Counted from the first letter of the stretch, positions 7,101-47,340 are shown. The stretch: 64,000 nucleotides of DNA from a virus (IMGVR_UViG_3300036670_000256:1-64000), one strand, 5' to 3'. Made by a program: numbers and translations. Notes: a model not told the origin generated them from the sequence alone.

Positions 7101-10100
7101 TTTGTTTAATGATTTAGTCATTTTGCCATTAGCGTCTGTAAAGAATTTTCTCATTTGAGGATCTCTTGCAAAAACGGCAGAGTTTGATTCTATAAAAGCT
7201 TTTTGGTCTTTAATTGATTCTTCAATTGCTTTTTTAAATTCTTCAAACTTCATTTCCATACCAAGCTGTTTGTGGGTATTGAAAATGTTGCTTAGTAATT
7301 GCTTGTCGTTAAAAACAATTTTTTTGTTTTCAAATGAAATAATTTCTTCAGTATCTATTTTTGGAACTTCCATTAAGTAAGTTCTACTAGAGTCAGAGAA
7401 ACGGCCCGTATCCATCAAATAACTTCCTTTTGATGCTGACTTATTAAACATCATAAAATCGTTCAATCTATGGTCGCCAGAATCAGAATTTTTAAGTATT
7501 ACAGATTTGTTGTTGTTTTGATTTAAAATACCATCGTATTGTACCAAATCAATATCGCCACCTTTTGAAATTTTATCATATAAAAAGTTTAGTAATTGAT
7601 TAGCGTATTTACCTTTTTTTAAATTACCAGACTTGTGAGAATACTTATTTAAAAAATCTTTTTTATCCATACGCGCAGCATCTTCTTTCATTTTCTTAGT
7701 ATTTCTAGTAAGAAAATTATCAATTATTTTCACCGGAGTTTGATTTCCTTCTGCGTTAAATACGTTATAGTCTGCAGTAAACTTTCTATTTTCGTTTACT
7801 ATAGCTTTTATAAAAGTTCGAATACCTGATTTGAATTTTTCATTTTTATTTCCTAAATCAAATACTGGTTTGTTGTCAACCAAACCATTAAATAAACCAT
7901 TTTTAGAACGAACAAAAGCAATTATAGTATTTGTTAATGGATAGCTTTTTCCGTTAATGTTTATTTTGTTTGCAGCTAACATTTCTTTTCTGTTTATTTT
8001 ACTGCCAGATAAGAAATTAAAAACATTATCAATGTCTTGTTTGGTAAATTGACCATTGTATATGTTTTCTGCAGAAGACAGCATATTTCTGTAATTTTCA
8101 TTACCATTAAATTTGTCTTTAAACATTTGGTCTACTTTGTTTTCGCTTGAAGTAAGTTCCTTTTCACTTAAATTAGTTTCTAGTTTTACTTGTCCGTTTT
8201 TGTCTACAAATGTTTTTATTGAAGTTACATCTGATTGGTTTTTAGCCAACCAGTGCAAAGATTGTAAAACAACTAATTTATCAGAATCTCTTTTTTTGTC
8301 TAAAAACAAATTGAATTTTTTAAGATCTCCATCTTTAGCTTCTTGAAGTCTTCTAATAAAATCTGCAGAACTATCACTTGTTTCAGCAAGTTTTGTCAAT
8401 TTGTATTTTAATACTTGAGCATCTAAAAACTCTATTTTATTTAAGTTTGTGTTTAGCTCTCTAGCTTTTAAAGTTTTAGCTTTATTGTAAAACTCACTAA
8501 ATGTTTTTATAATGCCAGACATTTTATTTATGTACTGTAATCTATCAGTATTAAATATTTCATCAAACATTAAATTTTCTAAATCATTTTCTCCATTTTC
8601 TTCGTCTATGATTTGTTCAAATAAAGTTTCTTTTTTGTCGTTTCTTCTTGCTTCTTTTTGACGCTTAACTTCTTCTTGAATTGTGTTTTTTTGTTTTTCA
8701 ATCAATTCATTTATAGCTTCATTTTTTTGAGTAATAGCTAAGTCTTCTGCAATACTTCTACTTTCTCTAACTACCAATGAAGTTTCTTTTCCTTTTATTT
8801 CAGTTTCAAAAGCATTTAAAATAGTGTTTAAATCAGAACTATAAATTTGTTTATCTGCATCAGATAAAGTTTGTTGAAATTCTTTTCTTGCTGCAATTCC
8901 AGTAGTATCTTCTGCAAGTTTTTTAACTTTTTGCCACCACTTTTTAGCGTAAACTTGTCTTTTACGTTCTGAACTAAGAACACCTTCGTTTGATGAATTT
9001 TCTTTTTCTTTAAAAAAGTTTGTGTATTTATCAGAAAGAGGACCTTCTAAAGTAGCTGCAAAAATTTCGTCTAATAAAATCTCTTGTTCTTCAATTGGAA
9101 TTTTTATTAAATTTCCTTTTTGAACTTGTAAATCAAACCATTTGTTTCTTACGTCTTCGCTGTAAGAATTCCATTTATTACCAAAAATTCTTTTTTTAGT
9201 CAATTTCTCTCCTGTTTCAGGATTTTGATATTGAATCATGTCAGAATAAAGATTAGTAATCTTTTCAACTAAAGCTTCATTTTTTAAAGCAAAATTTAAA
9301 AGGCTTTTTGTTTCTGGCGAATTAGGAGTTAGCGCATAAAAAATATGTGCTACTTCGTGCATCATTGTTGTTCCCTGGTTCCAAGTTTTTTCGTTAATGT
9401 ATATTTGAGAAGCCACAGTCAAACCTAAAGCTCTAGTACCTAAAGTTGCTTCCATGTCCATTATTCTATAAACGTTTGCATTGGCATCAGGAAAAATCTG
9501 TTGCAAAGCATGTGACATTTCTATAGATTGTGAAAATTGTAATAACTGATTGTCTGCAGAAGTATCTACATATTCTTCTTTAAATCTATTAAGACCAAAT
9601 TTAAAACTTTTAGCTTTGTTTTTTCCTCTAGCTAATATTTTTCCACTTTTTTTAATTAGATTTTGTTTTTCAATTTTTTCGACAATTTTATTTATAAATT
9701 CTCTTTTTTCTCTAGCATCTGAAAATTCATCTGGCGCTTGATCTTTGTCAAAAACTTGTTTAAAATCAGGAATAATTTCATCATCAGTATTATCTTCAGT
9801 ATCTAAGTTTTGATCTTCGGAAAGTTGACGAATAAGTTCTTTATCTTCATCGCTTAAGTTTTCGTTTTCTTCTTGTTTAATTTTTACTAAAGCATCAATT
9901 TCTTTTTTATTTTCTTCGTAAAAAACTTTAACGTCTCCTTTTGGTTCTACACCTGCAGCAATAGATTCAGCAGTTTCATCAATTGCTTTTTCATTTTTTG
10001 CATTTGTAGTTTTTGCTTCTGGCTTTTTATTTGATGTAAACTTGACTTTTTTACCAGTAGCTTTATCAGTAATGTTACCATCTTTTGAAACTAATACAGT

Positions 10101-12746: not shown

Positions 12747-12757
12747 AATTATTTTTA

Positions 12758-14734
12758 TTAATACATTTTGCTGTAAATTGCTAACCACTTTTCAGAAAAC
12801 CCTTTTTGTTGTTCTTCTGAATTTTCTAATATTTTTTGAATAATAGAAATATCTGAATATTGTTTGTCGTCATTTCTAAGTTGTTTAGAATAATCAGTGT
12901 TTCCTTCTAATTCTGCAGAACGCATGAATTGAGTAAAAGCTTGTTCTTTAGAACCATCTTCATATATGTTTGGATCTCCTTGACTTTGAGAGGCAGCCAA
13001 ATAAAATGATTTAACAAGGTTTGCTCTATTTCCACTATCTACATATTTTGGATTAGTAATGTAACTAGAATTTATTTCAGAACGAACATGAGAAGCTGCT
13101 TTTTTGTTTCCATTAATAATTTGTTTGTATTGTTGAATTTCTTCTTGTTCAATATCAGTAATTGCTTTTGTGTCTGCAAATTCTCTTTTACGTTGGTCAC
13201 CAGTATTTAAAATATCTGTTTCATCATCTACGTTATTTGGATCATGATAAATTGCGTTACTTGCATTATCCCAACCTATATCGTGATAAAATATATGTCC
13301 TTCTGCGTCTTTTAAAACCATAACTCTTTTTGGTACAATTTGAGATTCACCTAAAAGTTCATTGTATTTTTCTTGTCTTTCATTATGAATGTTTTTGGTA
13401 GGATCTCCTTTCCAGTTTCCTTTAACATTATCCATCAATAAAAAGTCTTTGTTATTTTTATCAATACCACCACCCATCATAACAATAGAATCTACTGTTA
13501 AATCATATTTCTCTCCAAATACATCATCATCATCATTATCGGAAATTCTTTTACCAGAAGGATCAAAAAGCCTTGTTGATGCAGAAAGAGTTACACCTTT
13601 AATTACATTTCCTTCTACTGATTCTCCTAATGAAGCACCCCAGCTTTTAGCTGCTTGAGGAATGTTTAATTTAGTGTATCTAGCACCTCTAGGTTTGTAA
13701 CCATTAGCCCATAAATTACTTTTATCACCATCGTTTCCGTCAATAAAATCATCTGTAGGAACGTCGTAAACAGAACCTAAATATTGCGATGCTTGATCTC
13801 CTAATTGATCAAATACATTACTGTTCCATTCTGTAGCTTTTATTTTTTGAGGAAGTCTTGACATTATTTCTGTAAGTCCTGTAGAATGAAAAGCTTTATA
13901 GCCTTTAGAATTTGGTCCTAATTCTAATTGTTTTTCAGCAACTTCTTTTTCTTTTTTAGTAGCTGCTATTTTAGCAAGTCTATCTAAACTTTCTTGTTGA
14001 AACTTTCTGTAAGCTAAATCTCTTTGCCAATCAGAACCTCGTCCTTTGTATTGAGAATTAGTAAATGCAATTAAATCTTCTCTACTAGGATTTTGATTTT
14101 CAGGATAGGTCATTAAATAATTACCTAAAATTTTAGCGTAATTTTCTTTATTATAAAGAATATCTTCTGTTGGAATTTCTTCATCATAATCGTACTCACT
14201 AGCTGGAGGCATTTCAATTTCTGACATTTGTCCACTATATGTAACAATACCACCTTTGTTTTTTTCGTAGTCTTGTAAATTTGCTTTGTCTTTAGGATTT
14301 AGTAAATGACCAAAACCTTTCATTTGCATATCTACAATTCTGTCCATATTTTTTTTGTTGTCTAAATATTGACTAGATTCTTCTGAATTGGTGATGGCGC
14401 TTTTATAATCTGCCATTACTCTATGTCCACCATTTTCTAAAAACTTACCCATATTGCCGCCAAAAGTTTTGATATTTTCACGAATACCAACAGCCATATC
14501 TTTAGCTTTTCTATTTATTTTGTCTCGATCGGGCGCAAGTAAAGTATCAGAAAATTTAGAAACTTGTTCCATATAAGCTTGTTGCTTAAGTTGGTCTTGT
14601 TCGCTTTCTAATTTTTCTTTATCAAGTTGCTGCTGCATTACGCCAAGCATCCCAAGTTCTTCTTTTTGAGATTCTCTTTTTCTTCCGGTATCGTATAAAG
14701 CGGAATAACCCATTCCTATAGCCCAATCGTTCAT
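12758..14734 (-). CDS. probable ejected internal virion (cargo) protein, 658 aa
   Basis: Helical, Gln/Glu-rich N-terminus; lies in the cargo block next to the vRNAP gene. Confidence 0.6.
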   Translation of the reverse strand: MNDWAIGMGYSALYDTGRKRESQKEELGMLGVMQQQLDKEKLESEQDQLKQQAYMEQVSKFSDTLLAPDRDKINRKAKDMAVGIRENIKTFGGNMGKFLENGGHRVMADYKSAITNSEESSQYLDNKKNMDRIVDMQMKGFGHLLNPKDKANLQDYEKNKGGIVTYSGQMSEIEMPPASEYDYDEEIPTEDILYNKENYAKILGNYLMTYPENQNPSREDLIAFTNSQYKGRGSDWQRDLAYRKFQQESLDRLAKIAATKKEKEVAEKQLELGPNSKGYKAFHSTGLTEIMSRLPQKIKATEWNSNVFDQLGDQASQYLGSVYDVPTDDFIDGNDGDKSNLWANGYKPRGARYTKLNIPQAAKSWGASLGESVEGNVIKGVTLSASTRLFDPSGKRISDNDDDDVFGEKYDLTVDSIVMMGGGIDKNNKDFLLMDNVKGNWKGDPTKNIHNERQEKYNELLGESQIVPKRVMVLKDAEGHIFYHDIGWDNASNAIYHDPNNVDDETDILNTGDQRKREFADTKAITDIEQEEIQQYKQIINGNKKAASHVRSEINSSYITNPKYVDSGNRANLVKSFYLAASQSQGDPNIYEDGSKEQAFTQFMRSAELEGNTDYSKQLRNDDKQYSDISIIQKILENSEEQQKGFSEKWLAIYSKMY

Positions 14735-33333: not shown

Positions 33334-35040
33334 TTATCGGATTGTTGGAAATCCTGAAAGCCCAGCATTACCAGCTAAAGCACCTCCAGCATATCTTCCA
33401 TCTCCGCGAATAACAGCACAAGTATCTTCTACGTAGCATATTGGGAACAATTCTGCTAAGTAGTGACAGAAACCTCCATCAAAACCTGAACTAGCAAACA
33501 TTGATCCGTCTCTTGCTGGATCAAGTGAGTGCATACCATCAACATATTTTTTCTTAAAGAAACGACCTTGACCTCTAGAGAATAACTCAAAGTTAGAAAC
33601 TCCTTCGAATGGCGTAACGTTTAAGATATACATGTTACCTGAACCAACTAATCCACCAGAACGATTATTTAAACCAGGGTGAGAGAACAATTCATCTTTC
33701 ATGAACATGTACTCATTTCCTTTGTAGTAGTATGATTCTACTTCAAATCCTAATTTAACTTTTTCACCACCGGTAATGTTTTGAACAATGTTTGTATTAT
33801 GAACTGCAGAAATAGAAGCACCGTTAGATACATTCCATCCTAATAGTTTTTTCATTGCTGTATCCCAATTGTGATAAGCTAAATCATCACCTAAGACTAC
33901 AAATTGATTTCCCGTAGAACCTGCTGGAGAATTACCCGCTAAAACGTTTCCAACTGACTCTAACAAGTGAGGACTGAAACCAGTATTTACATCGTAAGAT
34001 AAATCAATAGTATCTTTAATTTGACGTACCCAACCATCAGAAGTTCTTGGAGCAACAATACCAGCTTCTGGGTTCATGTGTGCAGATGTCAATAAATTTT
34101 TACCACTATTCTCAAACCATTGGTGAGTAGATGGATCCATTGAACTTACAGAAAAACGACAAGCCAATTCTAATGCAATTGCAAAGTTTTGATCGGCTAA
34201 CCATTCTTGTTCGTACTGCCACATGTTAGATTCATTTTTATGACCTTGCATAGCGCCTGATGCTGATGCTGGATTTGCCCAAATTACTTTTCTTTGGTCT
34301 AATGCATTTCCTGTAAATGAAAGTGTGTAACGTGAAATAAATGAATAAAAGATTTTCCAGTATGACTGGTCATATCTTTGGTAACCTCTCATAGAACCTT
34401 CTCCGTAGTAGTTACCACCTTCCATTAATACTTCATCTTCTGTTAAACCAGCTTCATCCCAATCATTAGGCTGTCCAATTACTTTGAAATCTAATATAAA
34501 ATGATCTCCGGTAATTGATTCTCTAATTCTTTGGATGTAAAGCAAAGTACCTAAACCGCCATTTAAAACAACAGAATCTTGAGGATTAAATTTATCTCCA
34601 TAAATTCCTTCTGCCGGGTTATGCTTAATAGCAAATGAACCAATCATGTCTGTTTGAACATTAGAAGAAGTTGCTGTACCACTGTAAGTAACTCCAGCTA
34701 CTAAAGTCATGTCTGGTTTTGGGTTTGTTTCGTCAAAAAATTGACCCATAACACAAGCATTCATTGAAAAAGCAGGCTTAATGTTTAATGCTCTAAATTT
34801 TACACGATACGCGTTGTCGTGGACTTCTTTGTCCGCGCTTGGTCTCTTAATCCAACCGGCTTTTGTTCCACCATCAACACGACCTGTATGAAACAGAAAC
34901 GATGTGAATTTAGTGTAACGCTCAAATCGGCTAATTACTTTGTTGTGAACCGCAAAATCTTTATTCATTTGCGATGTTAAAGACAATTCCTCAGTGTGCA
35001 TTTGAGGATTGAATGTTTCGGATGTACCTTTAAATAACAT
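33334..35040 (-). CDS. major capsid protein (crAss-type HK97 fold), 568 aa
   Basis: Position after portal and scaffold; own terminator; highly expressed codon style; EGS and SSGFDG motifs. Confidence 0.8.
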   Translation of the reverse strand: MLFKGTSETFNPQMHTEELSLTSQMNKDFAVHNKVISRFERYTKFTSFLFHTGRVDGGTKAGWIKRPSADKEVHDNAYRVKFRALNIKPAFSMNACVMGQFFDETNPKPDMTLVAGVTYSGTATSSNVQTDMIGSFAIKHNPAEGIYGDKFNPQDSVVLNGGLGTLLYIQRIRESITGDHFILDFKVIGQPNDWDEAGLTEDEVLMEGGNYYGEGSMRGYQRYDQSYWKIFYSFISRYTLSFTGNALDQRKVIWANPASASGAMQGHKNESNMWQYEQEWLADQNFAIALELACRFSVSSMDPSTHQWFENSGKNLLTSAHMNPEAGIVAPRTSDGWVRQIKDTIDLSYDVNTGFSPHLLESVGNVLAGNSPAGSTGNQFVVLGDDLAYHNWDTAMKKLLGWNVSNGASISAVHNTNIVQNITGGEKVKLGFEVESYYYKGNEYMFMKDELFSHPGLNNRSGGLVGSGNMYILNVTPFEGVSNFELFSRGQGRFFKKKYVDGMHSLDPARDGSMFASSGFDGGFCHYLAELFPICYVEDTCAVIRGDGRYAGGALAGNAGLSGFPTIR

Positions 35041-36338: not shown

Positions 36339-38525
36339 TTATTTATTATCCGTTTTGTTCATTTCTGCGTTTTTAATTGTCATTTCTTTTTCAATATCAG
36401 CCATCTTTCTAAGATTTTGACCTCGTTCTTTTAATGCAGATTCATCTGCTTTATTGTTGGCATAAATTTTTGCAACATCAATATTATTTTGCAAACGTTC
36501 TCTGTCAAGTGCATCAACTTCTTCTTGACGTTTTACTTCTGCTTGTGCTGCTGCTTGTGCTTGTTCTTGAGCAAGTTTATTGTTTTCTTGTTTCATTTTC
36601 TCTAAAGCTTCAAGTCCTTTATCTAAAATTGATTCTGCTTCAGTAGAACTATCTGCATTGTGAATTTTAATTAAATCTCGGAAAGCTTGTTGAGAACCAA
36701 CGTTTGCAAAAGCATTATCAGCCATTGTATCAACACGTTTTTTTCTTTCGTATTCTTGTCGGTTATCTCCAATATAAACTCCCATATCGTCCATAAAGAA
36801 TTCAGGCATTACTTCTAAAAACTTTTGTTGATTGTCGCCGCCAAAATAAGAGAATACTTGATTTTCTTCGTAAACATGTTTTCCTTTTAAAACAATTCTT
36901 TCTTGTAATGTATCAACAAACGTATCGAAAATTCCATATATTTCTTCTAGTCTATCAGATGATCTACTTTCAGAAATTTCAGCTACAGTAGCTTTTTGAT
37001 AGGGATTTTCTTGTGATGCTTTTACTCCAGTAATTTTAGTTGCTAAATCTTCAATTAAACCTAAAAGTTGTAGTAGTTCCGAACTTCTACCTTTTTGAGA
37101 AACGTTTACAGAAGACGCGTAAGGCGCGCTACGTTTATCTTTAGAATTTATAATTTGCATTCTATCTCTTTTCAAAAAGAAATTTACTTTTTCTAAAGCT
37201 CTATCTGGACCAAGTGCAGCCCATTCTTTTGGTATGTTTGATAAATCGTAAACCATTACATTACCATCAACTTGTCTAGCATTCATTCTCAATTCATATA
37301 GAATTTCTGATGCAAAATCTTGTAGGTAAACTAATTTTTTAGCAATAGATCTAACCTCTCCAATACCTACGTTGTTATCGTCTATAACACCAACTACAGG
37401 TAAAAATCTTTTTTTAGGATTTCCAATTGTTTGCATTTGTTTATCTAGAGAACCCCAAGACAAAGTAACTTCTGGACCAACCATTGTAATGTGACGTACA
37501 TCATCAATTTCCAAAGTTTTAATGGTATCGTTTCCTTTTGCTTTATCGTCTTCTTTTAGAATTTTATATTCTTCTTTTCCAGTAGTTTTATTTGTGATTA
37601 CTTTAAATCTTCTTTTAATTCTAGAAACCCACATCATAGAAGTAACTCTAATTCTAAATAAATTTTCGCTGTTTTTAAACCAACTAATGTCTGATGATTG
37701 TGATGGAGTAGAGGAATAACTTTGAATTATTTTTTTGTCTTTTTCAGTAATGTTATCAAACGTATTGAAAATTTCATTTATCGTAGAATATTTATCGTAG
37801 GTAAAATACTGTAAATCTTTTTGAACTTGTTCATGTGGATTTTGGTCATAATCACAATCTAAAGTATGAGGAACAAAAAAAGAAGGATGTCCATCTTTTT
37901 CATCTAAGTAAGTGTGAACTCTACCAGCAATACAGAAAAACCGAAGCATTTCATATATTTTTTCTTTTTCTTTTTTAACTAAAAGAACCTGGTACAAAAT
38001 ATCTTCTGCAATTTCTTCCGATACTGTTCTGAAATCTTTACCAAAAAATTCGTCAATGTTTTCTTTAACTTCTATTTCAGGATTTGGAGATTCTGGAACC
38101 ATACCTAATTCCGGTTGCATTTCTTTATTTGTATCTCTAAGTAATTTTTCTAAAACCATATCGATTTTAGCATCTAGTTTTTTGATTACTGCCTTTTCAT
38201 TATTTACAAGGCATTTTCTTTTTAAAGGTCTTCTTCTGTATTGAGATACAATTTCTTCTATTTGATTTTCAATTAAAGGATAAACGTAATATTGCGGACC
38301 AAAGTTTTGGCCGCAACGTTCAGTAATCATAGCTTTTACTTTTTTCTCTCCTTCTGGAGTAAGCTTTGCAGAATAAGCATAAAACAAATCGTTTATTTCT
38401 TTTTTTCTGCTTATAAAATCTGAGGAACTAGCGTAAGATAAATAACCTAAAATATGACTTTTATGCCATTCAATATCTTTTTGTTTTTCACTTATTCTCT
38501 GGTCTGGAAAGTTATAAATACTCAT
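36339..38525 (-). CDS. portal protein, 728 aa
   Basis: FPDQRIS..QKDIEW start, YPLI motif, C-terminal coiled coil; downstream of TerL. Confidence 0.85.
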   Translation of the reverse strand: MSIYNFPDQRISEKQKDIEWHKSHILGYLSYASSSDFISRKKEINDLFYAYSAKLTPEGEKKVKAMITERCGQNFGPQYYVYPLIENQIEEIVSQYRRRPLKRKCLVNNEKAVIKKLDAKIDMVLEKLLRDTNKEMQPELGMVPESPNPEIEVKENIDEFFGKDFRTVSEEIAEDILYQVLLVKKEKEKIYEMLRFFCIAGRVHTYLDEKDGHPSFFVPHTLDCDYDQNPHEQVQKDLQYFTYDKYSTINEIFNTFDNITEKDKKIIQSYSSTPSQSSDISWFKNSENLFRIRVTSMMWVSRIKRRFKVITNKTTGKEEYKILKEDDKAKGNDTIKTLEIDDVRHITMVGPEVTLSWGSLDKQMQTIGNPKKRFLPVVGVIDDNNVGIGEVRSIAKKLVYLQDFASEILYELRMNARQVDGNVMVYDLSNIPKEWAALGPDRALEKVNFFLKRDRMQIINSKDKRSAPYASSVNVSQKGRSSELLQLLGLIEDLATKITGVKASQENPYQKATVAEISESRSSDRLEEIYGIFDTFVDTLQERIVLKGKHVYEENQVFSYFGGDNQQKFLEVMPEFFMDDMGVYIGDNRQEYERKKRVDTMADNAFANVGSQQAFRDLIKIHNADSSTEAESILDKGLEALEKMKQENNKLAQEQAQAAAQAEVKRQEEVDALDRERLQNNIDVAKIYANNKADESALKERGQNLRKMADIEKEMTIKNAEMNKTDNK

Positions 38526-38812
38526 AAGATAGTTATGTTATGTTGTTTTTTAAATTCGTTCCAAGTCATTTCTTGCATGAAGTTTGGAAATATTTTTTCG
38601 TGATTACAAGATGTAGGTTCTGCTAAAACATCATTTGGATTACATTTGCAAAAATTACATTTTTTTTGAGCAATACAGCTTTTACAAATATACGCTCTAA
38701 ATCTAATTTGTTCTATTTGTGTTTTTTTAAAAGGTCTGTTAGGATAGTCGTTTTTTACTTTTTCAAAAAAATCAACAAACTCTTTGTCTTCTAAGTTTAA
38801 TATTAAATTCAT
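38522..38812 (-). CDS. small Cys-rich (probable Zn-binding) protein, 96 aa
   Basis: CKSC..CNFCKC..C pattern; translationally coupled to terL and portal. Confidence 0.7.
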   Translation of the reverse strand: MNLILNLEDKEFVDFFEKVKNDYPNRPFKKTQIEQIRFRAYICKSCIAQKKCNFCKCNPNDVLAEPTSCNHEKIFPNFMQEMTWNEFKKQHNITIL

Positions 38813-41049
38813 CGGTCTTGCATTCTTTTTTTCTCTTGCAGAAATATGTTATAAATAGTTGGATCAACTCCTAAAAATTTTACTTCTTTTTCAAATTCGC
38901 TTTGTCTTTTTAGAATATCAGTTTTTTTATTTACTTTGACATCAATATATTCCTTGTACTCTTGAGGGTTTAAATCTCTTTCTGGATGAAATACTTGTAT
39001 TGGAGAATAATCATCATCGTAAACGTTATTCCTTAATTTACCATCTGTATCGACGTAATAACTTCCTAAAGTTTTATCGTAATTATACATGCTTATTTCA
39101 GAAGAACCAACTTCAATATCTTCTGTTATTTCGTCAAAAATATCCATTCTGTGTAATAAGCAAATACCTAAAGTCATAGCTATATCCGTATTGCCATCGC
39201 CAAATTTAATTAGATCTAGAATTACATTTTCAAAATTACATTTGAAAATGTTTTCTTTTACTTCTGATTTCAACATTTTAACTAGAACAGGTTTTACTTG
39301 TCCAGTCATTTTTACACCATCTTTGTTTTTGTGATTAGTAGTTCCGGCTTCTTCAATATCTGGTCTACCTTTAATATATTTATAAGCTTTAACATCGTAG
39401 AAGTATCTTAAAATATGAAATTTTGTATACTCAAATAATATTTCTAAATCCCAATAAACAGCAAATTTTACAGCATTTTCATAAAATACATCATCATCAA
39501 AAGAACCATCGCCGCGCTCGTGTAATACTCCTACCGGTTTATTAAATTCTCTAGTTGGTCCTGAAAAACAACGATACGCCATTACGCAACCAGAAGATAC
39601 TTGGTTTGTGTTTTTCTTGTCGTCGTCAACTTCTTCATCGTAACTATCACAACCGCCAATATCGGGTTTGTAAGATAAGTGTAGAACCGATTGATTAATT
39701 GGTGATGCATCTTTCCAAACAGTTCCGTTTTCTTTGTCTTCTACAAATTTTACTTTTACGTTATGTGCAATTCTAATTTTAGTTTTTTCTTTTGTGTTTT
39801 TACATCGTTGAAGTAATCGAATAACTTCTTCCGTATCTACCCATTCTAATCTTCCTTGCAATACTGGTTCGTCAAATTGACCTAAACTAATTTCTTTTAA
39901 TTGAAAGTTAAGTTTTGCTAAGTCTAAAATTCCACCTTTAGTTTTTAAGAAAACCTCAGCCGGTATCATTGGATAAGATTGAATATGTTTGATGTAAGTA
40001 TCTTTAGCTTTAGAGGCTCTTTTTCTTTCTTCTAAAATATATTTTTTGGCAACTTCGCGATCTGTAACTCCCGTTTCATGGTTAAAAAATGAAATTACTT
40101 TTCCTGTTTTTTCGTCAGGAATTCCATCACCAGGATAATAATAATTTGCAGGAATAAATACTGGTTTCAAATTATAAGCTTCATGGTTATCCCACATTTC
40201 TTTGAAACCTTTTGCACCTTTGTCGATTTCTCCACCGGTTCCGTATACCATTGGAACACCAAACTGATTATGTCCATCGCGAAAACATGGTTCTGTTGCT
40301 TTGTAAGATGCTGTTGAATTTTCAAACAATCCCATTTCCTCAAAATACATTTTGGAATAAGAACCTCCTTCAAAAGCGGAACTATCAGCAAACATGGTTT
40401 TGATTCTCAATAAAGATTGAATACCACATTCTTTAGTTTGCTTGTTAATTAAATTTTTATAGCCTTGTTTTAATTCCTTATCGTTTTTTAAAATATTACC
40501 ATTGTAATAAGCTGGATGCACATTTTCAAGTGAGAATTTTAATTTATCATAAAACTCCTGAGCTTTATCTTCTTTACCAGCACATAATCCAATTAAATTA
40601 TGTTGAAAAAATGTCATTTCATAATTTGCATCCAGTACATTTATTTCTGACAAACCTACACGTCGAGGTTTTGTAATAATCATTCCGTAGCCATGATTTT
40701 CAGCGCCTTCCATTTCTAAAAACAACCAATGATCTAAATCTCTATAAAATGGATTTATTGGCCTTTTTCTTTTTCCGCCTTTTGGCATACCAAGTATTTT
40801 GCAGAAGTTTAAATAATAAAAGTGCTTTCCTGTTATTCTAGGCATTCCTTTTGGTTGATATCCTTTGTAGCAATAGTAATCCATTTCATGCCAAAAATCA
40901 TCGTAAGCTAAAGTACCTGGATTAAGTTCCGTAGATAATTTTTTAATTCTTTCGTTGAATAATATTGGTTGATACAATTTAGGATTCCAGCCTGATTTTT
41001 TGCTTAGTCTAAAAATGTCTGGAATTTCTATGTTAGGGAATTGAGCCAT
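38809..41049 (-). CDS. terL: terminase large subunit, 746 aa
   Basis: Walker A KPRRVGLS, Walker B YFEEMG, coupling motif YGTGG, nuclease GGCDSY; ITGKHFYYLNF. Confidence 0.92.
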   Translation of the reverse strand: MAQFPNIEIPDIFRLSKKSGWNPKLYQPILFNERIKKLSTELNPGTLAYDDFWHEMDYYCYKGYQPKGMPRITGKHFYYLNFCKILGMPKGGKRKRPINPFYRDLDHWLFLEMEGAENHGYGMIITKPRRVGLSEINVLDANYEMTFFQHNLIGLCAGKEDKAQEFYDKLKFSLENVHPAYYNGNILKNDKELKQGYKNLINKQTKECGIQSLLRIKTMFADSSAFEGGSYSKMYFEEMGLFENSTASYKATEPCFRDGHNQFGVPMVYGTGGEIDKGAKGFKEMWDNHEAYNLKPVFIPANYYYPGDGIPDEKTGKVISFFNHETGVTDREVAKKYILEERKRASKAKDTYIKHIQSYPMIPAEVFLKTKGGILDLAKLNFQLKEISLGQFDEPVLQGRLEWVDTEEVIRLLQRCKNTKEKTKIRIAHNVKVKFVEDKENGTVWKDASPINQSVLHLSYKPDIGGCDSYDEEVDDDKKNTNQVSSGCVMAYRCFSGPTREFNKPVGVLHERGDGSFDDDVFYENAVKFAVYWDLEILFEYTKFHILRYFYDVKAYKYIKGRPDIEEAGTTNHKNKDGVKMTGQVKPVLVKMLKSEVKENIFKCNFENVILDLIKFGDGNTDIAMTLGICLLHRMDIFDEITEDIEVGSSEISMYNYDKTLGSYYVDTDGKLRNNVYDDDYSPIQVFHPERDLNPQEYKEYIDVKVNKKTDILKRQSEFEKEVKFLGVDPTIYNIFLQEKKRMQDR

Positions 41050-41538: not shown

Positions 41539-42138
41539 TTAAAAATTGTTTAATCCTAATTTATTAGGGTTTTCTAAGTCTTCTCCGTGGTTAACAAATT
41601 TACTATTTTTTTTGCTTAGTATTTCATTTTCAATTCTTGACAATTCGTAACCACTATTTGTAATCGCTTTTTCAACAATTTTTTTCTTTTCAAATTTACT
41701 ATTGAATTTCTGTATAGCTTCTTCGTGTTTGTTTATTTGATTTGATAATCTAGATATTTCAGTATCGTCTTCAACTTGATTTGCTTCTGATATCTTTTTT
41801 AATAATCTGGTTTTAATTTCTGCATTAATTCGTTCCAGCTGCAGATCATTATTAAATTGCAATTCTAAATATTTTTCTATTGCATTTTGAACTAAAGGTT
41901 CTGTTTCTTTTAAAGCACTTCGCTTTGTGTAAACTTCTTCTACAGCTCTAGCAAACCTATCTGCTCTATCGTAGTAAGCAAATATTGATAAATAATCGCA
42001 ACTCAAAGCTACAACAGTCATTGCATTAATTCCTTTTTTTGAGAAAAGTTCTCGAAATGCTTTTATAGCTTTCCAACCGGAATTAGATGGAGAATCATCA
42101 ATCAAACCAGTTTCTTGATTTATCTGAATTAAATACAT
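41539..42138 (-). CDS. helical protein, terminase small subunit candidate, 199 aa
   Basis: DYLSIFAY..AIEKYLELQ pattern and coiled coil, upstream of terL; assignment mainly by position. Confidence 0.45.
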   Translation of the reverse strand: MYLIQINQETGLIDDSPSNSGWKAIKAFRELFSKKGINAMTVVALSCDYLSIFAYYDRADRFARAVEEVYTKRSALKETEPLVQNAIEKYLELQFNNDLQLERINAEIKTRLLKKISEANQVEDDTEISRLSNQINKHEEAIQKFNSKFEKKKIVEKAITNSGYELSRIENEILSKKNSKFVNHGEDLENPNKLGLNNF

Positions 42139-42139
42139 T

Positions 42140-42490
42140 TTAAAGTCTTTGAGGTTCGTTTAGGTAAGACAATTTTTTAGATTGGTATTCGTCTAAAAGA
42201 TTTTTAAATTGTCTGTACGTAAACCATAAGTTATATTGTTCCGATATAATTTCGTGCTTTTCTTCTTTACCTAAATTTGGGTAAATGTCAGTTAGTAAAT
42301 CGTAAAGGAATCCAACCTTGTAATTTTTTTTATGCTTTTTAGCATCTATTAAAATTTTATTGTAATCGTTTGGAATCTTAAAAACACATAGTCCGTTTTT
42401 TAAATTTTCGTATAAATATTTTTTATGCTCCAAAGAATCTGGCGCACTAGGTAGCTTTATAGTACATTCGAATTTTTCTATTAAAATCAT
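42140..42490 (-). CDS. hypothetical protein (start MILIE at 42490)
   Basis: ATG follows the -7 box at 42508-42515. Confidence 0.65.
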   Translation of the reverse strand: MILIEKFECTIKLPSAPDSLEHKKYLYENLKNGLCVFKIPNDYNKILIDAKKHKKNYKVGFLYDLLTDIYPNLGKEEKHEIISEQYNLWFTYRQFKNLLDEYQSKKLSYLNEPQRL

Positions 42491-42507
42491 TGCTTTGTAA
42501 TTTTTAA

Positions 42508-42530
42508 CAAAGATAGTAGAAAAAATTTCA
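42508..42530 (-). promoter_or_regulatory. -7 box TATCTTTG with operator-like TGAAATTTTTTCT 2 nt upstream
   Basis: Direct sequence match. Confidence 0.6.
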
Positions 42531-42533
42531 ACT

Positions 42534-42560
42534 AAAAAAAGCACCCTTTTGAGGTGCTTT
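42534..42560 (-). terminator. intrinsic terminator
   Basis: AAAGCACC-cttttga-GGTGCTTT, T7 tail on the minus strand. Confidence 0.7.
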
Positions 42561-42624
42561 AATTAGGATAAAATGTAGAAAAAAATTGTAAAGTAAAAAA
42601 TAGTAGTCAGGCAAATATATACTT

Positions 42625-42867
42625 TTATTCTACTTCTTCATAATTTACTGTTGAATTTTTTACTAGATTTTCTGATATCCAACCGCCTTTTGATTTTGAT
42701 TTAAATATTTCGCCAAACTTTGTTTTTGAAACAGGAAAGTAATCATAAGTTTTTTTAGCAAATTCTATTCGCATTACTCCCGTTTTGTTTTCTTCATCAT
42801 ATTCCCAACCAACTTTGTTTACGTTAGATGAATGTACGTTATACATTTTTCCTTTAAATTCACTCAT
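42625..42867 (-). CDS. KTSC domain protein
   Basis: VHSSNVNKVGW..IEF..YDY..V..SKSKG pattern. Confidence 0.8.
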   Translation of the reverse strand: MSEFKGKMYNVHSSNVNKVGWEYDEENKTGVMRIEFAKKTYDYFPVSKTKFGEIFKSKSKGGWISENLVKNSTVNYEEVE

Positions 42868-43973
42868 GATTTTTCTGTTTTAGTTTCTATAAAAATTGGC
42901 ATTGACTTCATCTGTGATAATAATAATTTAATATCTTTTGTTGAAAAATCAAAATTCTTAGGTAATTGATCTATATCTAAAGTTATAACATTACCAACCA
43001 CAATTCCTTTTTTGGTAATCTGCAGCTGTTCTAATTTTAAATTAAATCTAGAGAAGTTTTTATTTCCAGTTCCTCCAAATTCTTTAGCAATTTTTAATAC
43101 ATCTACTTCCGGTTTTGTAGTGTATAAATTTATGGACCAACAACATGTTTTTGAATTGTAGAAATACATAAACACAAGGTCGTGTATGCTTTCAAAAAAG
43201 AAATTTTCGTAAGCTATAAAGTCTAGCTTATTTGAATTAATAGCTATTGCTTTTAAATCATTAAAATCAAATTCTACTGAACTTGATTTTATCAATAAAT
43301 CGTATTGCTTTTTTTGGTATTCTAACACATAACTACCAATACTTTTTATACTCTCAATATCGATGTTTTTTTCCCAATCATCTATATCAACTAATATATT
43401 ATGTATTTGTTCTGGAGTAGATTTACTACTCATAAACCAGTACATAGGCATTACTTCTTTTACCCAATCTTTATCCTTAATTATTTTGGTTTCTTCCGTA
43501 TGTCTTAAGGTAGAATATTGTCCAATACAACTTACAATATCTCTAGCATTTTTGCCAAGCTTCTGAGCGTAAAAATTAATCGCTATCTCACAAGATGATA
43601 GCGTTTCGGAATAATAATAAACCATATTCATTTTGGTAACTTCAAAGCATTTAATATAACTATTCAAGCTTTTTTCTCTCACTTCATATTCATTCAACTC
43701 ACAATATGATATTAAATCTTCAAAGTTTCCTATAAAATTATCTATCCAAATAAATTCTAAAGAACCTAATCCTAAAGTTTTCATTCTTTCCATTGGTAAA
43801 GAGGTTCCTACCATTACTGTCACTTTGCCTTTGTACTTCCTGGTATCTAAATCTTCTTCAAAACATAAAGGTTTTAGTTTTAAAGTATCCCCATATTGTT
43901 TTTGATGCGAATACAATACTGCTGCAGCTGTTATACTGTCTAAAATTTCTAAGTTGTAAATACAAAAATCCAT
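42864..43973 (-). CDS. DHH/DHHA1 phosphoesterase-fold protein with degenerate catalytic motifs, 369 aa
   Basis: DHH scaffold spacing kept, but DxDG reads ILDS, DHH reads DNF and GGGH reads GGTGN. Confidence 0.75.
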   Translation of the reverse strand: MDFCIYNLEILDSITAAAVLYSHQKQYGDTLKLKPLCFEEDLDTRKYKGKVTVMVGTSLPMERMKTLGLGSLEFIWIDNFIGNFEDLISYCELNEYEVREKSLNSYIKCFEVTKMNMVYYYSETLSSCEIAINFYAQKLGKNARDIVSCIGQYSTLRHTEETKIIKDKDWVKEVMPMYWFMSSKSTPEQIHNILVDIDDWEKNIDIESIKSIGSYVLEYQKKQYDLLIKSSSVEFDFNDLKAIAINSNKLDFIAYENFFFESIHDLVFMYFYNSKTCCWSINLYTTKPEVDVLKIAKEFGGTGNKNFSRFNLKLEQLQITKKGIVVGNVITLDIDQLPKNFDFSTKDIKLLLSQMKSMPIFIETKTEKS

Positions 43974-44195
43974 TTATTGCTTTTTATTAGTTTTGGAATC
44001 AATTATTTCTTTTATTATTAAACATTCTAAATATAATTCTTCTTCTTCATAACTAGCAAGTAAAAATTTTAAATTGATAATATCTCCCTTTGATAATTGA
44101 TCTTTAAACGAATCGTATTCTGTAAATGTTTCTGTAAATCTTTCTGCAGATAAAGTTTCTTGAAAAATTAAATCTATTTTTTCTAAAATTGCCAT
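43974..44195 (-). CDS. small acidic protein with UVR-like C-terminal helix (start MAILE at 44195)
   Basis: EEEELYLECLIIKEIID; -7 box upstream. Confidence 0.65.
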   Translation of the reverse strand: MAILEKIDLIFQETLSAERFTETFTEYDSFKDQLSKGDIINLKFLLASYEEEELYLECLIIKEIIDSKTNKKQ

Positions 44196-44210
44196 GTTAA
44201 TTGTTTTTAA

Positions 44211-44247
44211 CAAAAATACATGAAATAACTTCAACTATGCAAATTTA
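44211..44247 (-). promoter_or_regulatory. two -7 boxes (44211-44218, 44240-44247) flanking operator-like TGAAGTTATTTCA (44221-44233)
   Basis: Direct sequence match. Confidence 0.6.
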
Positions 44248-44308
44248 CCAAAAAAAATAGGAACTATTTCTAATTCCTAATTTTCCGAATAATTATTAAC
44301 CAAAATAT

Positions 44309-44599
44309 TTATCTGCATTCAAACCAATCATCCGATAACATGTCTTCCGGATTTGGTATCCAACCTTCAGTAGTTACGCCATTGCAATTACACCGAAAAT
44401 GTGGAGTTCTAGTTATTGTATTAAAATCACCTCTCTGAAATAAGTTTTCATCAATGTAGTCTAGTTTGCTTCCATTCGAAATATCAGTAGAATAATTTCC
44501 CTGAATCAAACTAATGATTTTATTGTGAGCATTTATTCTAGCCACTTCTTTGTTTTGTTTTAATAACTCTAAAGCAACACTAAAATTGAAATTTCTCAT
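44309..44599 (-). CDS. DUF2829 / Tad2-like protein (anti-Thoeris sponge family), 96 aa
   Basis: FSVALELLKQNKEVAR N-terminus and GWIPNPEDMLSDDW C-terminus. Confidence 0.8.
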   Translation of the reverse strand: MRNFNFSVALELLKQNKEVARINAHNKIISLIQGNYSTDISNGSKLDYIDENLFQRGDFNTITRTPHFRCNCNGVTTEGWIPNPEDMLSDDWFECR

Positions 44600-44613
44600 T
44601 TTATTTGTTTTTA

Positions 44614-44655
44614 CAAAGATAAAAAAAAAGCGAGAATATTAATTTCTCGCTTTTA
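44614..44655 (-). terminator. terminator after groES followed directly by a -7 box (44614-44621)
   Basis: AAAAGCGAGAA-tattaat-TTCTCGCTTTT; TATCTTTG on the minus strand. Confidence 0.75.
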
Positions 44656-44658
44656 ATT

Positions 44659-44976
44659 TTAAACTTCTTCTTCTCGTACTAATTCCAAAATTTCATCTTC
44701 TCGTAAAGAACATAAAGCTTCGGTTAGTCCTTCATTATTAAAATTTTGAGAACCAAACACCGTTCCCGCGTGAGGTATGTGAGAAATTAAATCTCCTATT
44801 TTTACCCAATCAATACTTGTTCCTACCGCCAAAACTGTACCTCTTGATAACAATTTCTTCTCGTCTTTCTTTTCGATAATTCCAGATTTGTTTTCTTCAT
44901 ACAAACCCGAATCTTTTTCAACGTAAACTCTCAAAATAATTTTATTTGGCGCGCATCCTACTGTCTTCTTTTTCAT
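44659..44976 (-). CDS. groES: co-chaperonin GroES-like protein
   Basis: NKIILRV..KSGII..GTVLAVG..VKIGD..LREDEIL pattern. Confidence 0.85.
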   Translation of the reverse strand: MKKKTVGCAPNKIILRVYVEKDSGLYEENKSGIIEKKDEKKLLSRGTVLAVGTSIDWVKIGDLISHIPHAGTVFGSQNFNNEGLTEALCSLREDEILELVREEEV

Positions 44977-44992
44977 AATCTAATATTAAATG

Positions 44993-45217
44993 TTATACAA
45001 ATAAACTCTTAACTGCATACATGCAGCTTGTTTCTAATTGGGTTTGTGCTAATGATATTTCTCTACCATTTTGACCGTTGTTCATAGTTTCTAATTTGTC
45101 AAACAAATTAGCATAGTCTTGTTTCAATTCTTCAATCTCTGGCTTTGCAGATGGATTGAAATTTCTTTGAACTCTTAATTCTCCTTTCGATACTGGTCTT
45201 TCGATTTTTCCACTCAT
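44993..45217 (-). CDS. Acb2/Tad1-like helical hairpin protein (cyclic-nucleotide sponge family), 74 aa
   Basis: GELRV..FNPS..IEELK..A.L.D..REISLAQTQLETSCMYAVKS pattern. Confidence 0.7.
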   Translation of the reverse strand: MSGKIERPVSKGELRVQRNFNPSAKPEIEELKQDYANLFDKLETMNNGQNGREISLAQTQLETSCMYAVKSLFV

Positions 45218-45220
45218 AAT

Positions 45221-46081
45221 TTATAGTTTATTTAAAAATTTATACAATTCTAAATTCCATTTTGCATCCGATAACGCATGATGCTCGTTTGATTTTTTTG
45301 GAAATAAAATATTATTTTTCTTTATTGATTCTACCGTTACTTTTGGCATCCCTTCCTTAAGATTTGTAGAATCATTTATCTTCATAATTTTCTGATCTAA
45401 CATCTGCTTTAAATCTTTACAATACATCGGAAAACCATTTGGCAAATTTATCATTTTTCCAAACAACCAACAAAACACTACCCAATCATAATCACCAAAA
45501 TATGCGTAGAAATCTATCTCTCCCTTGAAATTAGCAATTATCTTTCTAGTGGTTTCTATCTGATGCTTATTCTCATCATAACCCACAATTGCAAATTCAT
45601 AAACAAATTCCTTTACCAATTCTGAAATCTGCTTGTTGGTCTTTCCATACCGTTCAATAAACGAACTCAAACTATGAATCGTAAATAAATCATCATGCAA
45701 TCCAGAATCTAATTCTTTCTTGAATTCCTCAGCCTCTCTATTACTCAACATAATCGTATCGCAATCTGAAAATAAAAATAACTGCTTCCAAATTGGATAT
45801 AATACATTATCGCGAATCCAATAAATCTTTAATGGAGGACAACCAGCTCGAATTTTCTCAGGACTTAATTCCTCTAAATCAAATCTATTCCAAGCTTCTT
45901 TTAAATTGAAATCTTTTGATACCTCATAAAACTCTCGGCCATCCTCAGAAACAATACCAATCGATATTAAATCAATTGTAGCCTTTGGTTTACCAATAAT
46001 CCAATTGCCTAAACGACCTTTCAATATTAAACTACGCTCCGGAACTCCTTCTAAAAATTCCGTGTCTAAAAAATATTTCAT
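45221..46081 (-). CDS. DEDDh 3'-5' exonuclease (Rv2179c/DUF5051-like), 286 aa
   Basis: YFLDTEF, LISIGIV, DYDW, HHALSDAKW motifs. Confidence 0.85.
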   Translation of the reverse strand: MKYFLDTEFLEGVPERSLILKGRLGNWIIGKPKATIDLISIGIVSEDGREFYEVSKDFNLKEAWNRFDLEELSPEKIRAGCPPLKIYWIRDNVLYPIWKQLFLFSDCDTIMLSNREAEEFKKELDSGLHDDLFTIHSLSSFIERYGKTNKQISELVKEFVYEFAIVGYDENKHQIETTRKIIANFKGEIDFYAYFGDYDWVVFCWLFGKMINLPNGFPMYCKDLKQMLDQKIMKINDSTNLKEGMPKVTVESIKKNNILFPKKSNEHHALSDAKWNLELYKFLNKL

Positions 46082-46082
46082 A

Positions 46083-46436
46083 TTATTCCTCTTTTTTAAT
46101 TCCTATTGGAAAATCATTAAACGCATTCTTACCATAATTATCCCCACCAGTTCCAAATATTATCGGAATATTTTTAATTCCTAAATCCCTTTTAGGAAAA
46201 GCAGCTTCCCAAGCTTTCTTAAAATCATCACGATTTAATTCCATCGGAATTTTTAACAAAGGATTTAAACCACTAAACGAACTACCATTAACCCTTTTTT
46301 CCATATCTCTATTCATTTTTTCCGTTAACGCATCTTCATCCGTATGCTTAAACCATAAGCTTTTAAGATCGCTAAATCCCTTAACGTTTTTAAAACAATC
46401 AGAGTCTTCACCACAAGCACTAAATAAATTATCCAT
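46083..46436 (-). CDS. small protein with a TerL motif III-like C-terminal segment, 117 aa
   Basis: IPIIFGTGGD versus TerL VPMVYGTGGE; -7 box 4 nt upstream of the ATG. Confidence 0.7.
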   Translation of the reverse strand: MDNLFSACGEDSDCFKNVKGFSDLKSLWFKHTDEDALTEKMNRDMEKRVNGSSFSGLNPLLKIPMELNRDDFKKAWEAAFPKRDLGIKNIPIIFGTGGDNYGKNAFNDFPIGIKKEE

Positions 46437-46440
46437 GATA

Positions 46441-46463
46441 CAAATATAGATGAAGTTATTTCA
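46441..46463 (-). promoter_or_regulatory. -7 box TATATTTG (46441-46448) and palindromic operator TGAAATAACTTCA (46451-46463)
   Basis: ATGAA-N5-TTCAT palindrome; first promoter of the minus-strand block. Confidence 0.65.
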
Positions 46464-46560
46464 TGTACCAATTTTTGAACAAAAAAAATTCTCACACGAA
46501 GTTATTGCAACAACCAAAAAAAAATAAAAAAAATATTTGCGCGGGTGTATCCACTAAACA

Positions 46561-46594
46561 ACCCCGTCTCGGAAATGAATTTCCCCGACGGGGT
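46561..46594. other. GC-rich hairpin at the strand-switch point
   Basis: ACCCCGTC-tc-GGAAA-tgaa-TTTCC-cc-GACGGGGT. Confidence 0.8.
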
Positions 46595-46670
46595 ACTAGT
46601 GCGATAAACCACAAAAAGAGAGTCCGAATGACTCAACAACATATTTATTAATCCATTAAAACAAATCAAA

Positions 46671-46919
46671 ATGGAAAATTCTAAAGCGTTAAACGCAACC
46701 AAAAGAGTAGCAGTATCAGTATTAGCAACAGCACATTACATGGCTACACAATTCGCAGACAGCTGTATAACAGCGGAACACAAAATAGTAGGCGGCGACC
46801 TAAAAGAAGTATCAGATGCTAGACAACTAGCAACCTTCCAACGTCAATCCGACTTCGCACAAAAGATCAAGGCTATCAAAGATAGATCTCAAAACAACTT
46901 AACACCTAAAACAGTATAA
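46671..46919 (+). CDS. small early protein, 82 aa (paralogue of 47514..47882)
   Basis: ORF; shared H-x7-D-x4-AE-x2-I and R-x3-T-x3-Q motifs. Confidence 0.75.
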   Translation: MENSKALNATKRVAVSVLATAHYMATQFADSCITAEHKIVGGDLKEVSDARQLATFQRQSDFAQKIKAIKDRSQNNLTPKTV

Positions 46920-46971
46920 TAACGAAACAGAAAACAATTAAAAATGTCCAAGTAATGCTTGGCTAAAACTC

Positions 46972-47340
46972 ATGAAACAGACAGCTGTATTCGTGCTTAT
47001 ATGCGCGGTAGGAATTGGCATTGGCGGTCACTTAGCCAGTGCCTTATTCTTCGGAATCATTACGTTAGTAGGCCTTATAGCCTTAGTAGAAAACATACCA
47101 ATAATTAAATGGTTTGTCTACAAAACTAACAACTTCATTGACGTCATGCTATTCATCCTTGCGGTGATAGCTACTGTCAAAATGGGAGTAACTATAACTG
47201 CAGCATTAACTGTTGCCGGTCTTGGTTACACCATGTGCTACGCACCTTACGTTCGACGTAAGAAAAAAGAAAACCGCGAGGTCCACTCGCAAAACAAGGT
47301 AGTCAACGAAATACTATCTAAAAATAAAATTAATTATTAA
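46972..47340 (+). CDS. membrane protein (about 4 TM), 122 aa
   Basis: Hydrophobic segments and basic tail. Confidence 0.75.
   Translation: MKQTAVFVLICAVGIGIGGHLASALFFGIITLVGLIALVENIPIIKWFVYKTNNFIDVMLFILAVIATVKMGVTITAALTVAGLGYTMCYAPYVRRKKKENREVHSQNKVVNEILSKNKINY

Follow-up and report, generated by a model that had tools for sequence, protein, structure and literature searches.

A small-gene block with sponge-family members upstream of the terminase gene of a very divergent crAss-like phage

Is a run of small genes next to the packaging genes of a phage a dedicated counter-defence island, or a looser collection of accessory genes? This question is raised by positions 42625–46436 of the viral sequence IMGVR_UViG_3300036670_000256:1-64000, a stretch of 64,000 nucleotides (nt) referred to here as the window, which makes up the opening 64 kb of one record of 73,637 nt. 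An original prediction made from the sequence alone had placed here, upstream of the terminase gene (TerL), a co-regulated counter-immunity module of nucleotide sponges and decoys. The region does contain eight consecutive small open reading frames (ORFs), g1 to g8, all on the minus strand, and four of the predicted families, namely a Tad2-like protein (g5), an Acb2/Tad1-like hairpin protein (g3), a DEDDh exonuclease (g2), and a KTSC protein (g8), were recovered with Pfam matches above the cut-off. In our view there is about an even chance that the region is an accessory slot, mixed and hypervariable, that has genuine counter-defence content without being a coherent island. Judged from its sequences, the block would combine one good sponge candidate (g3), a divergent family member (g5), an exonuclease linked to g3 (g2), and a pseudo-enzyme under selection (g7), and beside them a probable morphogenesis helper (g4) and three other genes (g1, g6, and g8).

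The best sponge candidate of the block is g3 (44993–45217, minus strand), a protein of 74 amino acids (aa) in the Acb2/Tad1-hairpin family and a putative sponge for cyclic trinucleotides. The gene starts 3 nt past the stop codon of g2, and its product matches the Pfam family PF24729 (Acb2_Tad1_hairpin) with 36.7 bits against a cut-off of 27 (E 4.8e-9). At E ≤0.01 there are 204 homologues; the best 120 of these are 66–79 aa long and 59–96% identical to g3, and PF24729 is found in all of them. An alignment of 31 family sequences has 24 invariant columns, R52 and T59 among them (31/31). Comparison of the family profile with Acb2 (PDB 'p26') gave a weak match in which R52 and T59 fall on R67 and T74 of Acb2, the residues reported to hold the phosphates of cyclic triadenylate (cA3; PMC10312549), and an Arg/Thr pair with the same spacing as that of Acb2 is described for Tad1 (10.1101/2023.11.15.567273). 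With Acb2 (Pseudomonas phage PaMx33; T4 Vs.4) and the Tad1 hairpin, g3 shares the Pfam domain, two long antiparallel helices in its model, and predicted self-association, and, with Acb2, an Arg/Thr pair spaced by seven residues that aligns with the cyclic-trinucleotide site. It differs from them in its length of only 74 aa and in an N-terminal part that does not align.

The AlphaFold2 model of g3 (predicted local distance difference test, pLDDT, of 85) shows a short helix and a long hairpin, with helices at residues 11–19, 26–44, and 51–71. It superimposes on Vs.4 with a Z score of 5.4 and a root-mean-square deviation of 2.4 over 52 residues, and on Acb2 with a Z score of 4.0 and a deviation of 2.7 over 53 residues. 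Prediction of a four-copy complex gave an interface score (ipSAE, interaction prediction score from aligned errors) of 0.76 versus 0.00 for the best of three controls; the three runs have at least 97% of their contacts in common, and the partner pLDDT is at least 84. In the calibration of such predictions the mark was reached by 20 of 30 solved pairs and by 1 of 23 single chains, counts that are only roughly valid here. The predicted assembly shows a hairpin–hairpin dimer, and dimers contact each other at residues 56, 59, and 63, coinciding with the expected position of the trinucleotide site. This modeling supports self-association of g3, and the score may partly reflect likeness to the solved Acb2 and Tad1 complexes. 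Acb2 and Tad1 are hexamers, whereas g3 was predicted as four copies only.

The distribution of the g3 family is viral: viral contigs gave 30 loci and 185,579 cellular genomes gave none, and among isolated phages every record with a homologue (78/78) is a Flavobacterium phage. Compared with Acb2 and Tad1, the family is therefore one seen in viral records only and, among isolates, in Flavobacterium phages only. A Pfam search of 127 neighboring proteins (three genes on each side of 23 g3-family loci) found Tad6 twice, in the records L020 and L022, and a Tad2-like protein once, in L012. The Tad6-family gene encodes 229 aa, lies at 7321–8207 in both L020 and L022, and overlaps the start of the hairpin gene; the neighbor in L012 is a MoTad2-family member (E 7e-34, profile against PDB 8v3e/9eib). 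We know of no tested member of the ~70-aa hairpin clade, the set tested by Hadary et al. not having been compared with it. In that study, as reported, 65 of 84 tested Acb2, Tad1, or Tad2 homologues were active (10.1101/2025.08.24.671296).

Immediately upstream of g3 lies g2 (45221–46081, minus strand), whose 286-aa product resembles Rv2179c/RNase AS, a DEDDh 3′–5′ exoribonuclease, with two insertions. It scores 27.4 bits against the Pfam Rv2179c-like family (cut-off 27) and matches PHROG 2259 (E 4.8e-42) and PDB 4oke (E 1e-11); against the NCBIfam RNase_AS equivalog it scores 84 bits and does not reach the cut-off of 200, and by these matches it is a relative of RNase AS and not an orthologue. 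The residues D6, E8, D199, H267, and D272, which we take to be the catalytic DEDDh residues, are present in g2 and also in its homologues of L006, L017, and L018, where the DxE and H-x4-D motifs are kept; g2 is predicted to be an active exonuclease. RNase AS/Rv2179c shares with g2 the Pfam and PDB matches and the DEDDh residues; it differs in its length of 168 aa versus 286 and in the two insertions of g2, which is also set apart by its pairing with the hairpin gene in phages. Homologues of g2 and g3 are also adjacent in L006, in reversed order. In L011, L012, L013, and L019 the neighbor of 260–270 aa next to the hairpin gene is no relative of the exonuclease.

The second sponge-family gene is g5 (44309–44599, minus strand), which is monocistronic and encodes a divergent Tad2-like (DUF2829) protein of 96 aa. 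It matches PF11195 (Tad2-like) with 38.4 bits (cut-off 25) and aligns over its full length with SptTad2 (8wjd; residues 2–94, E 2.9e-5). A word-indexed search for near relatives returned only g5 itself. In common with Tad2 (SptTad2, HgmTad2, SPO1 Tad2, and MoTad2), g5 has an N-terminal helix and a C-terminal W-x-P...D-x-L-x-x-D-W motif, and in common with SptTad2 an insertion of similar length; unlike Tad2, it is without the Trp of the GWNG motif, and it is only 21–31% identical to 36 homologues of the MoTad2 type, none of which is missing the 'GW' of that motif. Taking the roles of the pocket residues as given for HgmTad2 (10.1101/2023.11.15.567273), the pocket for glycocyclic ADP-ribose (gcADPR) has lost W21 through deletion, retains N22 (N23 in g5), W87 (W80), and D93 (D86), and is changed at L88 (I81), S90 (N83), and T92 (E85). 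In the cyclic-dinucleotide pocket (R31, S47, F70, and N85), R31 is without a counterpart, since g5 has no residues opposite the 'rp' of SptTad2, an insertion, and nothing aligns to R31 of HgmTad2; N85 is replaced by E78, and the equivalents of S47 and F70 fall in the unalignable insertion of g5. By sequence, g5 is thus placed in the Tad2 family with neither known pocket intact. Tad2 specificities are reported to vary widely (Hadary et al., 10.1101/2025.08.24.671296), and it is therefore possible that the ligand of g5, if any, differs from the known Tad2 ligands.

A dead DHH enzyme had also been predicted, and this was confirmed for g7 (42864–43973, minus strand), a 369-aa DHH/DHHA1 protein of the NrnA type that matches PHROG 4771 (E 9.3e-10). 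A HMMER search of 1.84 billion representatives found 565 relatives, the best of them 38% identical and 11 at E ≤1e-30. Alignment with these showed that g7 is changed at 8 of 12 catalytic-motif positions (DxD, D, DHH, and GGGH), carrying N7, I10, G56, N79, F80, S154, T302, and N304 in place of the H, D, D, H, H, D, G, and H found in at least 90% of the family. Among the best 150 of the 565 relatives, 144 have no change at the sites covered (22 of these being partial), four have one change, one has three, and one has seven. The domain order of g7 is that of stand-alone NrnA-type DHH/DHHA1 proteins and their phage relatives (PHROG 4771), and PDB 9r7o and NrnA entries align with its DHHA1 region, but H7, D10, D56, H79, H80, D154, G302, and H304 are all replaced. 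The nearest solved relatives of the family are NrnA-type enzymes and cyclic-di-AMP phosphodiesterases. Active phage DHH enzymes are predicted to degrade immune nucleotide signals, according to Iyer et al. (PMC7824862); unlike these, g7 would be unable to hydrolyze such signals by the known mechanism.

Among the strain variants described below, g7 has eight synonymous and two non-synonymous listed differences, giving a ratio of non-synonymous to synonymous rates (dN/dS) of ~0.06 (P 4.5e-5). Searches for closer relatives found no match by tblastn of g7 against isolated phages and none through g7 in viral or metagenome contigs; through TerL, the viral contigs gave only an identical fragment (L001) and the metagenome contigs none, and the estimate of selection on g7 was therefore drawn from strain variants only. 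Together, the motif comparison and the variant counts show a catalytically dead protein that purifying selection maintains.

To judge whether these genes form one module, their setting has to be considered. The first 128 nt of the record recur at its end as a direct terminal repeat, and the 73.6-kb phage genome is therefore complete. It belongs to a very divergent crAss-like phage from salt-lake metagenomes, with a TerL (38809–41049) only ~25% identical to those of known crAss-like phages and a G+C content of ~29%. Genes run leftward from 46436 down to 1149 and rightward from 46671, and the divergent intergenic region at 46437–46670 separates the minus-strand arm, with the block, packaging, and structural genes, from the plus-strand arm. 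Along the leftward arm the block is followed by g9 to g11, TerL, a 728-aa gene (36339–38525, taken as portal from its position), a 568-aa gene (33334–35040, taken as capsid from its position), and a 3,879-aa ORF. The −7 box TAnnTTTG, reported as conserved in Flavobacterium and Bacteroides (PMC7641319), occurs upstream of g1, g5, g6, and g9. Its density is 6.3/kb in intergenic versus 2.05/kb in coding sequence, and this enrichment together with the 78/78 Flavobacterium-phage homologues of g3 points to a host of Flavobacteriia type, so that the host is probably a member of the Flavobacteriia. A scan for the sigma-70 consensus was uninformative here, with 33 promoter-like sites versus 33.2 expected.

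The promoters and terminators given here lie on the minus strand. The −7 box of g1 (46441–46448) is 5 nt before its ATG, and an intrinsic terminator with an 11-base-pair (bp) stem and a U run (44626–44654; z −4.0) ends a first unit after g4. The promoter of g5 has the −7 box TATCTTTG (44614–44621), and a terminator-like hairpin with a 9-bp stem and U8 follows that gene (44250–44279). In the g6 promoter (44211–44238) a palindromic element (44217–44238) abuts the −7 box TATTTTTG (44211–44218), and a further intrinsic terminator lies after g8 (42538–42560; z −3.1). Given terminators after g4, g5, and g8 and −7 boxes before g1, g5, and g6, the block is therefore predicted to form three transcription units, g1–g4, g5 alone, and g6–g8, of which the g5 unit, with its own putative promoter and terminator, resembles a self-contained inserted cassette. 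The boundary of the accessory block is the promoter of the conserved packaging block g9–g10–g11–TerL (42508–42534), which is 82% identical to the g6 promoter over 34 nt.

The palindromic element at the g1 promoter (46446–46467) is part of the divergent intergenic region, and the g1 and g6 promoters have in common, in opposite orientations, an exact 17-mer (22 nt at 95%). With up to three mismatches, five copies are observed in the window versus 0.88 ± 1.0 expected. Weaker copies are found at 1047–1063 of the window, upstream of a 91-aa gene (757–1032), and at 65463–65479 of the genome (3464–3480 of L033), where the copy is a perfect 9+9 palindrome upstream of a 413-aa gene at genome position 65515. 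The element resembles an operator for a dimeric regulator. Host-type promoters sharing one operator motif, as originally predicted, are thus only partly recovered: the −7 boxes are present but occur genome-wide, 16 of 84 called genes having one no more than 60 nt upstream, and the palindrome marks g1 and g6 but is absent from the promoter of the Tad2-like gene, g5. It is also not specific to the block, two further copies lying at promoters outside it.

The phage backbone (TerL at 48–51% identity, the 728-aa gene, g9, g10, and others) is common only to L017 and L018. Both keep g2 and g3 in the same place, and between g3 and g9 they have other genes, among them a GroEL (515 or 528 aa). Besides GroEL, their slot contains crAss001_48-like, weakly KTSC-like, GIY-YIG, and acyl-carrier-like genes, the GIY-YIG endonuclease gene (L017 6365–7165) and the acyl-carrier-like gene (L018 6739–6993) being upstream of the exonuclease. 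In these two relatives the cluster was seen neither to be kept nor to be swapped for other anti-defence genes, and the clustering in related crAss-like genomes that had been anticipated reduces to the pair of exonuclease and hairpin genes. Just before GroEL, both relatives have a gene for 148–150 aa with an N-terminal hydrophobic stretch (L017 8928–9380, L018 8604–9050), and the one in L018 has a weakly Cpn10-like C-terminal half (13.5 bits).

A chaperonin-like gene is also present in the window as g4 (44659–44976, minus strand; 105 aa), a weakly GroES (Cpn10)-like protein. The GroES assignment of the original prediction is accordingly a weak one: the Pfam match of 16.8 bits is under the cut-off of 21.1 (16.4 bits, E 5.5e-4, in a six-frame search), and PHROG 3188 matches with E 1.8e-5. 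An hhalign comparison with three true Cpn10 genes that neighbor the hairpin gene in other phages gave E 0.011 and a probability of 3.8. Phage co-chaperonins are known in the form of GroES substitutes of the T4 gp31 type. Like these, g4 is a small GroES-like gene, and L017 and L018 have GroEL in that slot; unlike phage chaperonin systems, g4 is below the Pfam cut-off, and this genome has no phage GroEL. Most likely g4 is a helper in capsid folding or morphogenesis and not a decoy.

How, then, should the locus be read? That all eight genes form one co-regulated counter-immunity module with a common operator, in which GroES, the dead DHH protein, and the TerL look-alike act as decoys, we consider improbable. 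Two sponge-family genes do lie close together, ~400 nt apart, the palindromic element is common to the g1 and g6 promoters, and relatives do not retain the accessory genes, a usual pattern for counter-defence genes; against this, three terminators divide the block into separate units, the g5 promoter is without the palindrome while two copies stand at promoters outside the block, L017 and L018 keep two of the eight genes plus a weak KTSC, the TerL likeness is limited to 10 residues, and chaperonins fill the same slot in relatives. A different explanation would have the hairpin protein act not as a sponge but with the phage chaperonin, perhaps as its cofactor or substrate adaptor, and the block would then be mainly a region of morphogenesis helpers. 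Among 29 hairpin records GroEL is present in 10, and with GroES matches added a chaperonin gene is found in 12 of 30. In 12/12 records with both (the window, L006–L008, L011–L013, L017–L020, and L022), which represent about six groups of related records, the two genes are 16–3,898 nt apart, the 16 nt being the distance between g3 and g4 in the window; the TerL of the window has no match in five of these 12 records, and the hairpin family is unusually conserved. This explanation nevertheless seems to have only a slim chance of being right. No chaperonin match is found in 18 of 30 hairpin records, six of them at least 89% complete, the chaperonin genes of L012 and L019 are on the opposite strand, the Pfam match and the Arg/Thr pair indicate Acb2/Tad1, a validated sponge family of the MoTad2 type is equally conserved in alignment, and many kinds of accessory gene tend to gather in the same plastic regions. 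One group of Flavobacteriaceae phages is reported to carry GroEL often (36 of 78 genomes; PMC5332604), and our reading of the linkage is that of two accessory genes sharing one plastic region.

Also unlikely is a scheme without immune function, in which g2, and g7 before it lost catalysis, would be nucleotide-salvage or RNA-turnover enzymes of the nanoRNase type and g3 and g5 would have other roles. Rv2179c/RNase AS and NrnA-type DHH proteins are indeed RNA- or oligonucleotide-degrading families, DUF2829 has a wide distribution, and g5 has lost most of the known pocket residues, but continued purifying selection on a salvage enzyme with 8 of 12 catalytic-motif residues lost is hard to reconcile with this scheme, and the hairpin family adjoins Tad6 and MoTad2-type genes elsewhere. 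Under the mixed-slot reading that we prefer, the slot would head the minus-strand packaging and structural arm and be read as three units from host-type promoters, and part of it would serve counter-defence. In this scheme g3 would be a small homo-oligomeric sponge of the Acb2/Tad1 kind, sequestering cyclic trinucleotide (cA3-type) signals of the cyclic-oligonucleotide-based antiphage signaling system (CBASS) through Arg52 and Thr59; g2 might, more tentatively, act with it on oligonucleotide signals or on their linear products. The divergent Tad2 member g5, with its altered pockets, would have a different ligand, if any, g4 would most likely help capsid folding, and, as a speculation, g7 could bind nucleotides without cleaving them. 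A stronger version, rather unlikely in our estimate, would make g7 a new pseudo-enzyme sponge for short adenylates (cyclic or linear oligoadenylates, or molecules like cyclic-di-AMP) and, with g2 and g3, part of a three-part signal-clearing set in Flavobacteriia phages.

Several points weigh against this mixed-slot reading. Taken by itself, the alignment that places R52 and T59 on Acb2 residues is weak (E 0.74), the dinucleotide site of Acb2 (Y11 and K26) is unmappable, g3 residues 1–22 being outside the Pfam match and the HMMER alignment, and the fold searches with g3 (Foldseek and VIA) are non-specific, unrelated helical hairpins scoring Z 5–6.7. The Trp of GWNG that g5 is missing, owing to a two-residue deletion, is present in 36/36 aligned homologues, the equivalents of R31, N85, S90, and T92 of HgmTad2 are absent or changed, and the g5 model is poor (pLDDT 58.8; residues 35–78 below 50). 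The tight hairpin–chaperonin linkage (12/12) is not explained by a sponge function, the presence of host-type promoters where the late arm begins is no evidence of early expression, and the strain-variant counts rest on 40 of 65 differences. It should be noted that the expected structural match to sponge families was borne out only in part: the sequence matches of g3 and g5 stand, the model of g3 was non-specific, and the first 15 Foldseek matches listed for g5 (ranks 1–21) are all Tad2 entries but, coming from a poor model, have E ≥0.16.

Most work on Acb2, Tad1, and Tad2 sponges has concerned phages that infect Pseudomonas, Bacillus, and enterobacteria, and here their relatives are found in a divergent crAss-like phage. 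The ~70-aa hairpin clade keeps the cyclic-trinucleotide pair and could be among the smallest sponges, g5 with its remodeled pockets may have a new ligand, and the selected, inactivated DHH protein beside sponge-family genes is a testable candidate for a sponge that evolved from a signal-degrading enzyme. The hairpin–chaperonin linkage could change the reading of the PF24729 family. The dead DHH protein and this linkage are the novel parts; the remainder belongs to known kinds.

The three other genes of the block are less informative. The first, g1 (46083–46436, minus strand; 117 aa), has no Pfam or PHROG family and nothing in the ESM Atlas (pLDDT 0.39). It had been regarded as a look-alike of a TerL fragment, a proposal that we reject because the match spans only 10 residues (E 0.018 for the single comparison). 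This motif, IPIIFGTGG plus D or E, occupies residues 90–99 of g1 (window 46090–46170), 265–274 of TerL, and 377–386 of P0125, a DHH relative that carries it in its C-terminal tail (E 3e-4 for that comparison), and may be a docking motif or due to chance. The acidic g6 (43974–44195, minus strand; 73 aa from the ATG at 44195) has no family, and only unnamed viral clusters were found for it in the ESM Atlas. The last gene, g8 (42625–42867, minus strand; 80 aa), encodes the KTSC-domain protein (Pfam 26.6 bits, cut-off 25).

A strain of the same phage is present on contigs from three further salt-lake runs; one run may be the source of the window, and one 47.5-kb contig covers 42000–46920 with 54 substitutions and no gaps. 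No RNA run appeared among the listed sequencing runs that carry the phage. The per-gene counts refer to 40 listed differences of 65 in all. These are three synonymous and no non-synonymous differences in g5, four and none in g9, five and three in g2, none and three in g3 (all at variable columns), and none and six in g1, five of them within 34 nt, suggesting that g1 is either fast-evolving or weakly constrained.

Other searches added little: megablast of 42000–47000 against isolated phages gave no match, no Rfam family reached the gathering score in the window, no tRNA was found, and PADLOC returned nothing for the eight block genes and one weak DinG match for g10, outside the block. The 3,879-aa ORF, at 1149–12788, stands at the far end of the structural arm, and PcfK- and PcfJ-like genes come after the 413-aa gene at genome position 65515. 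Where the two arms diverge, at 46562–46600, the intergenic DNA has a G+C-rich inverted repeat for which Rfam gave no match. Just past the 82-aa gene at 46671–46919, the strains in runs X2–X4 have 386 extra letters at 46920/46921.

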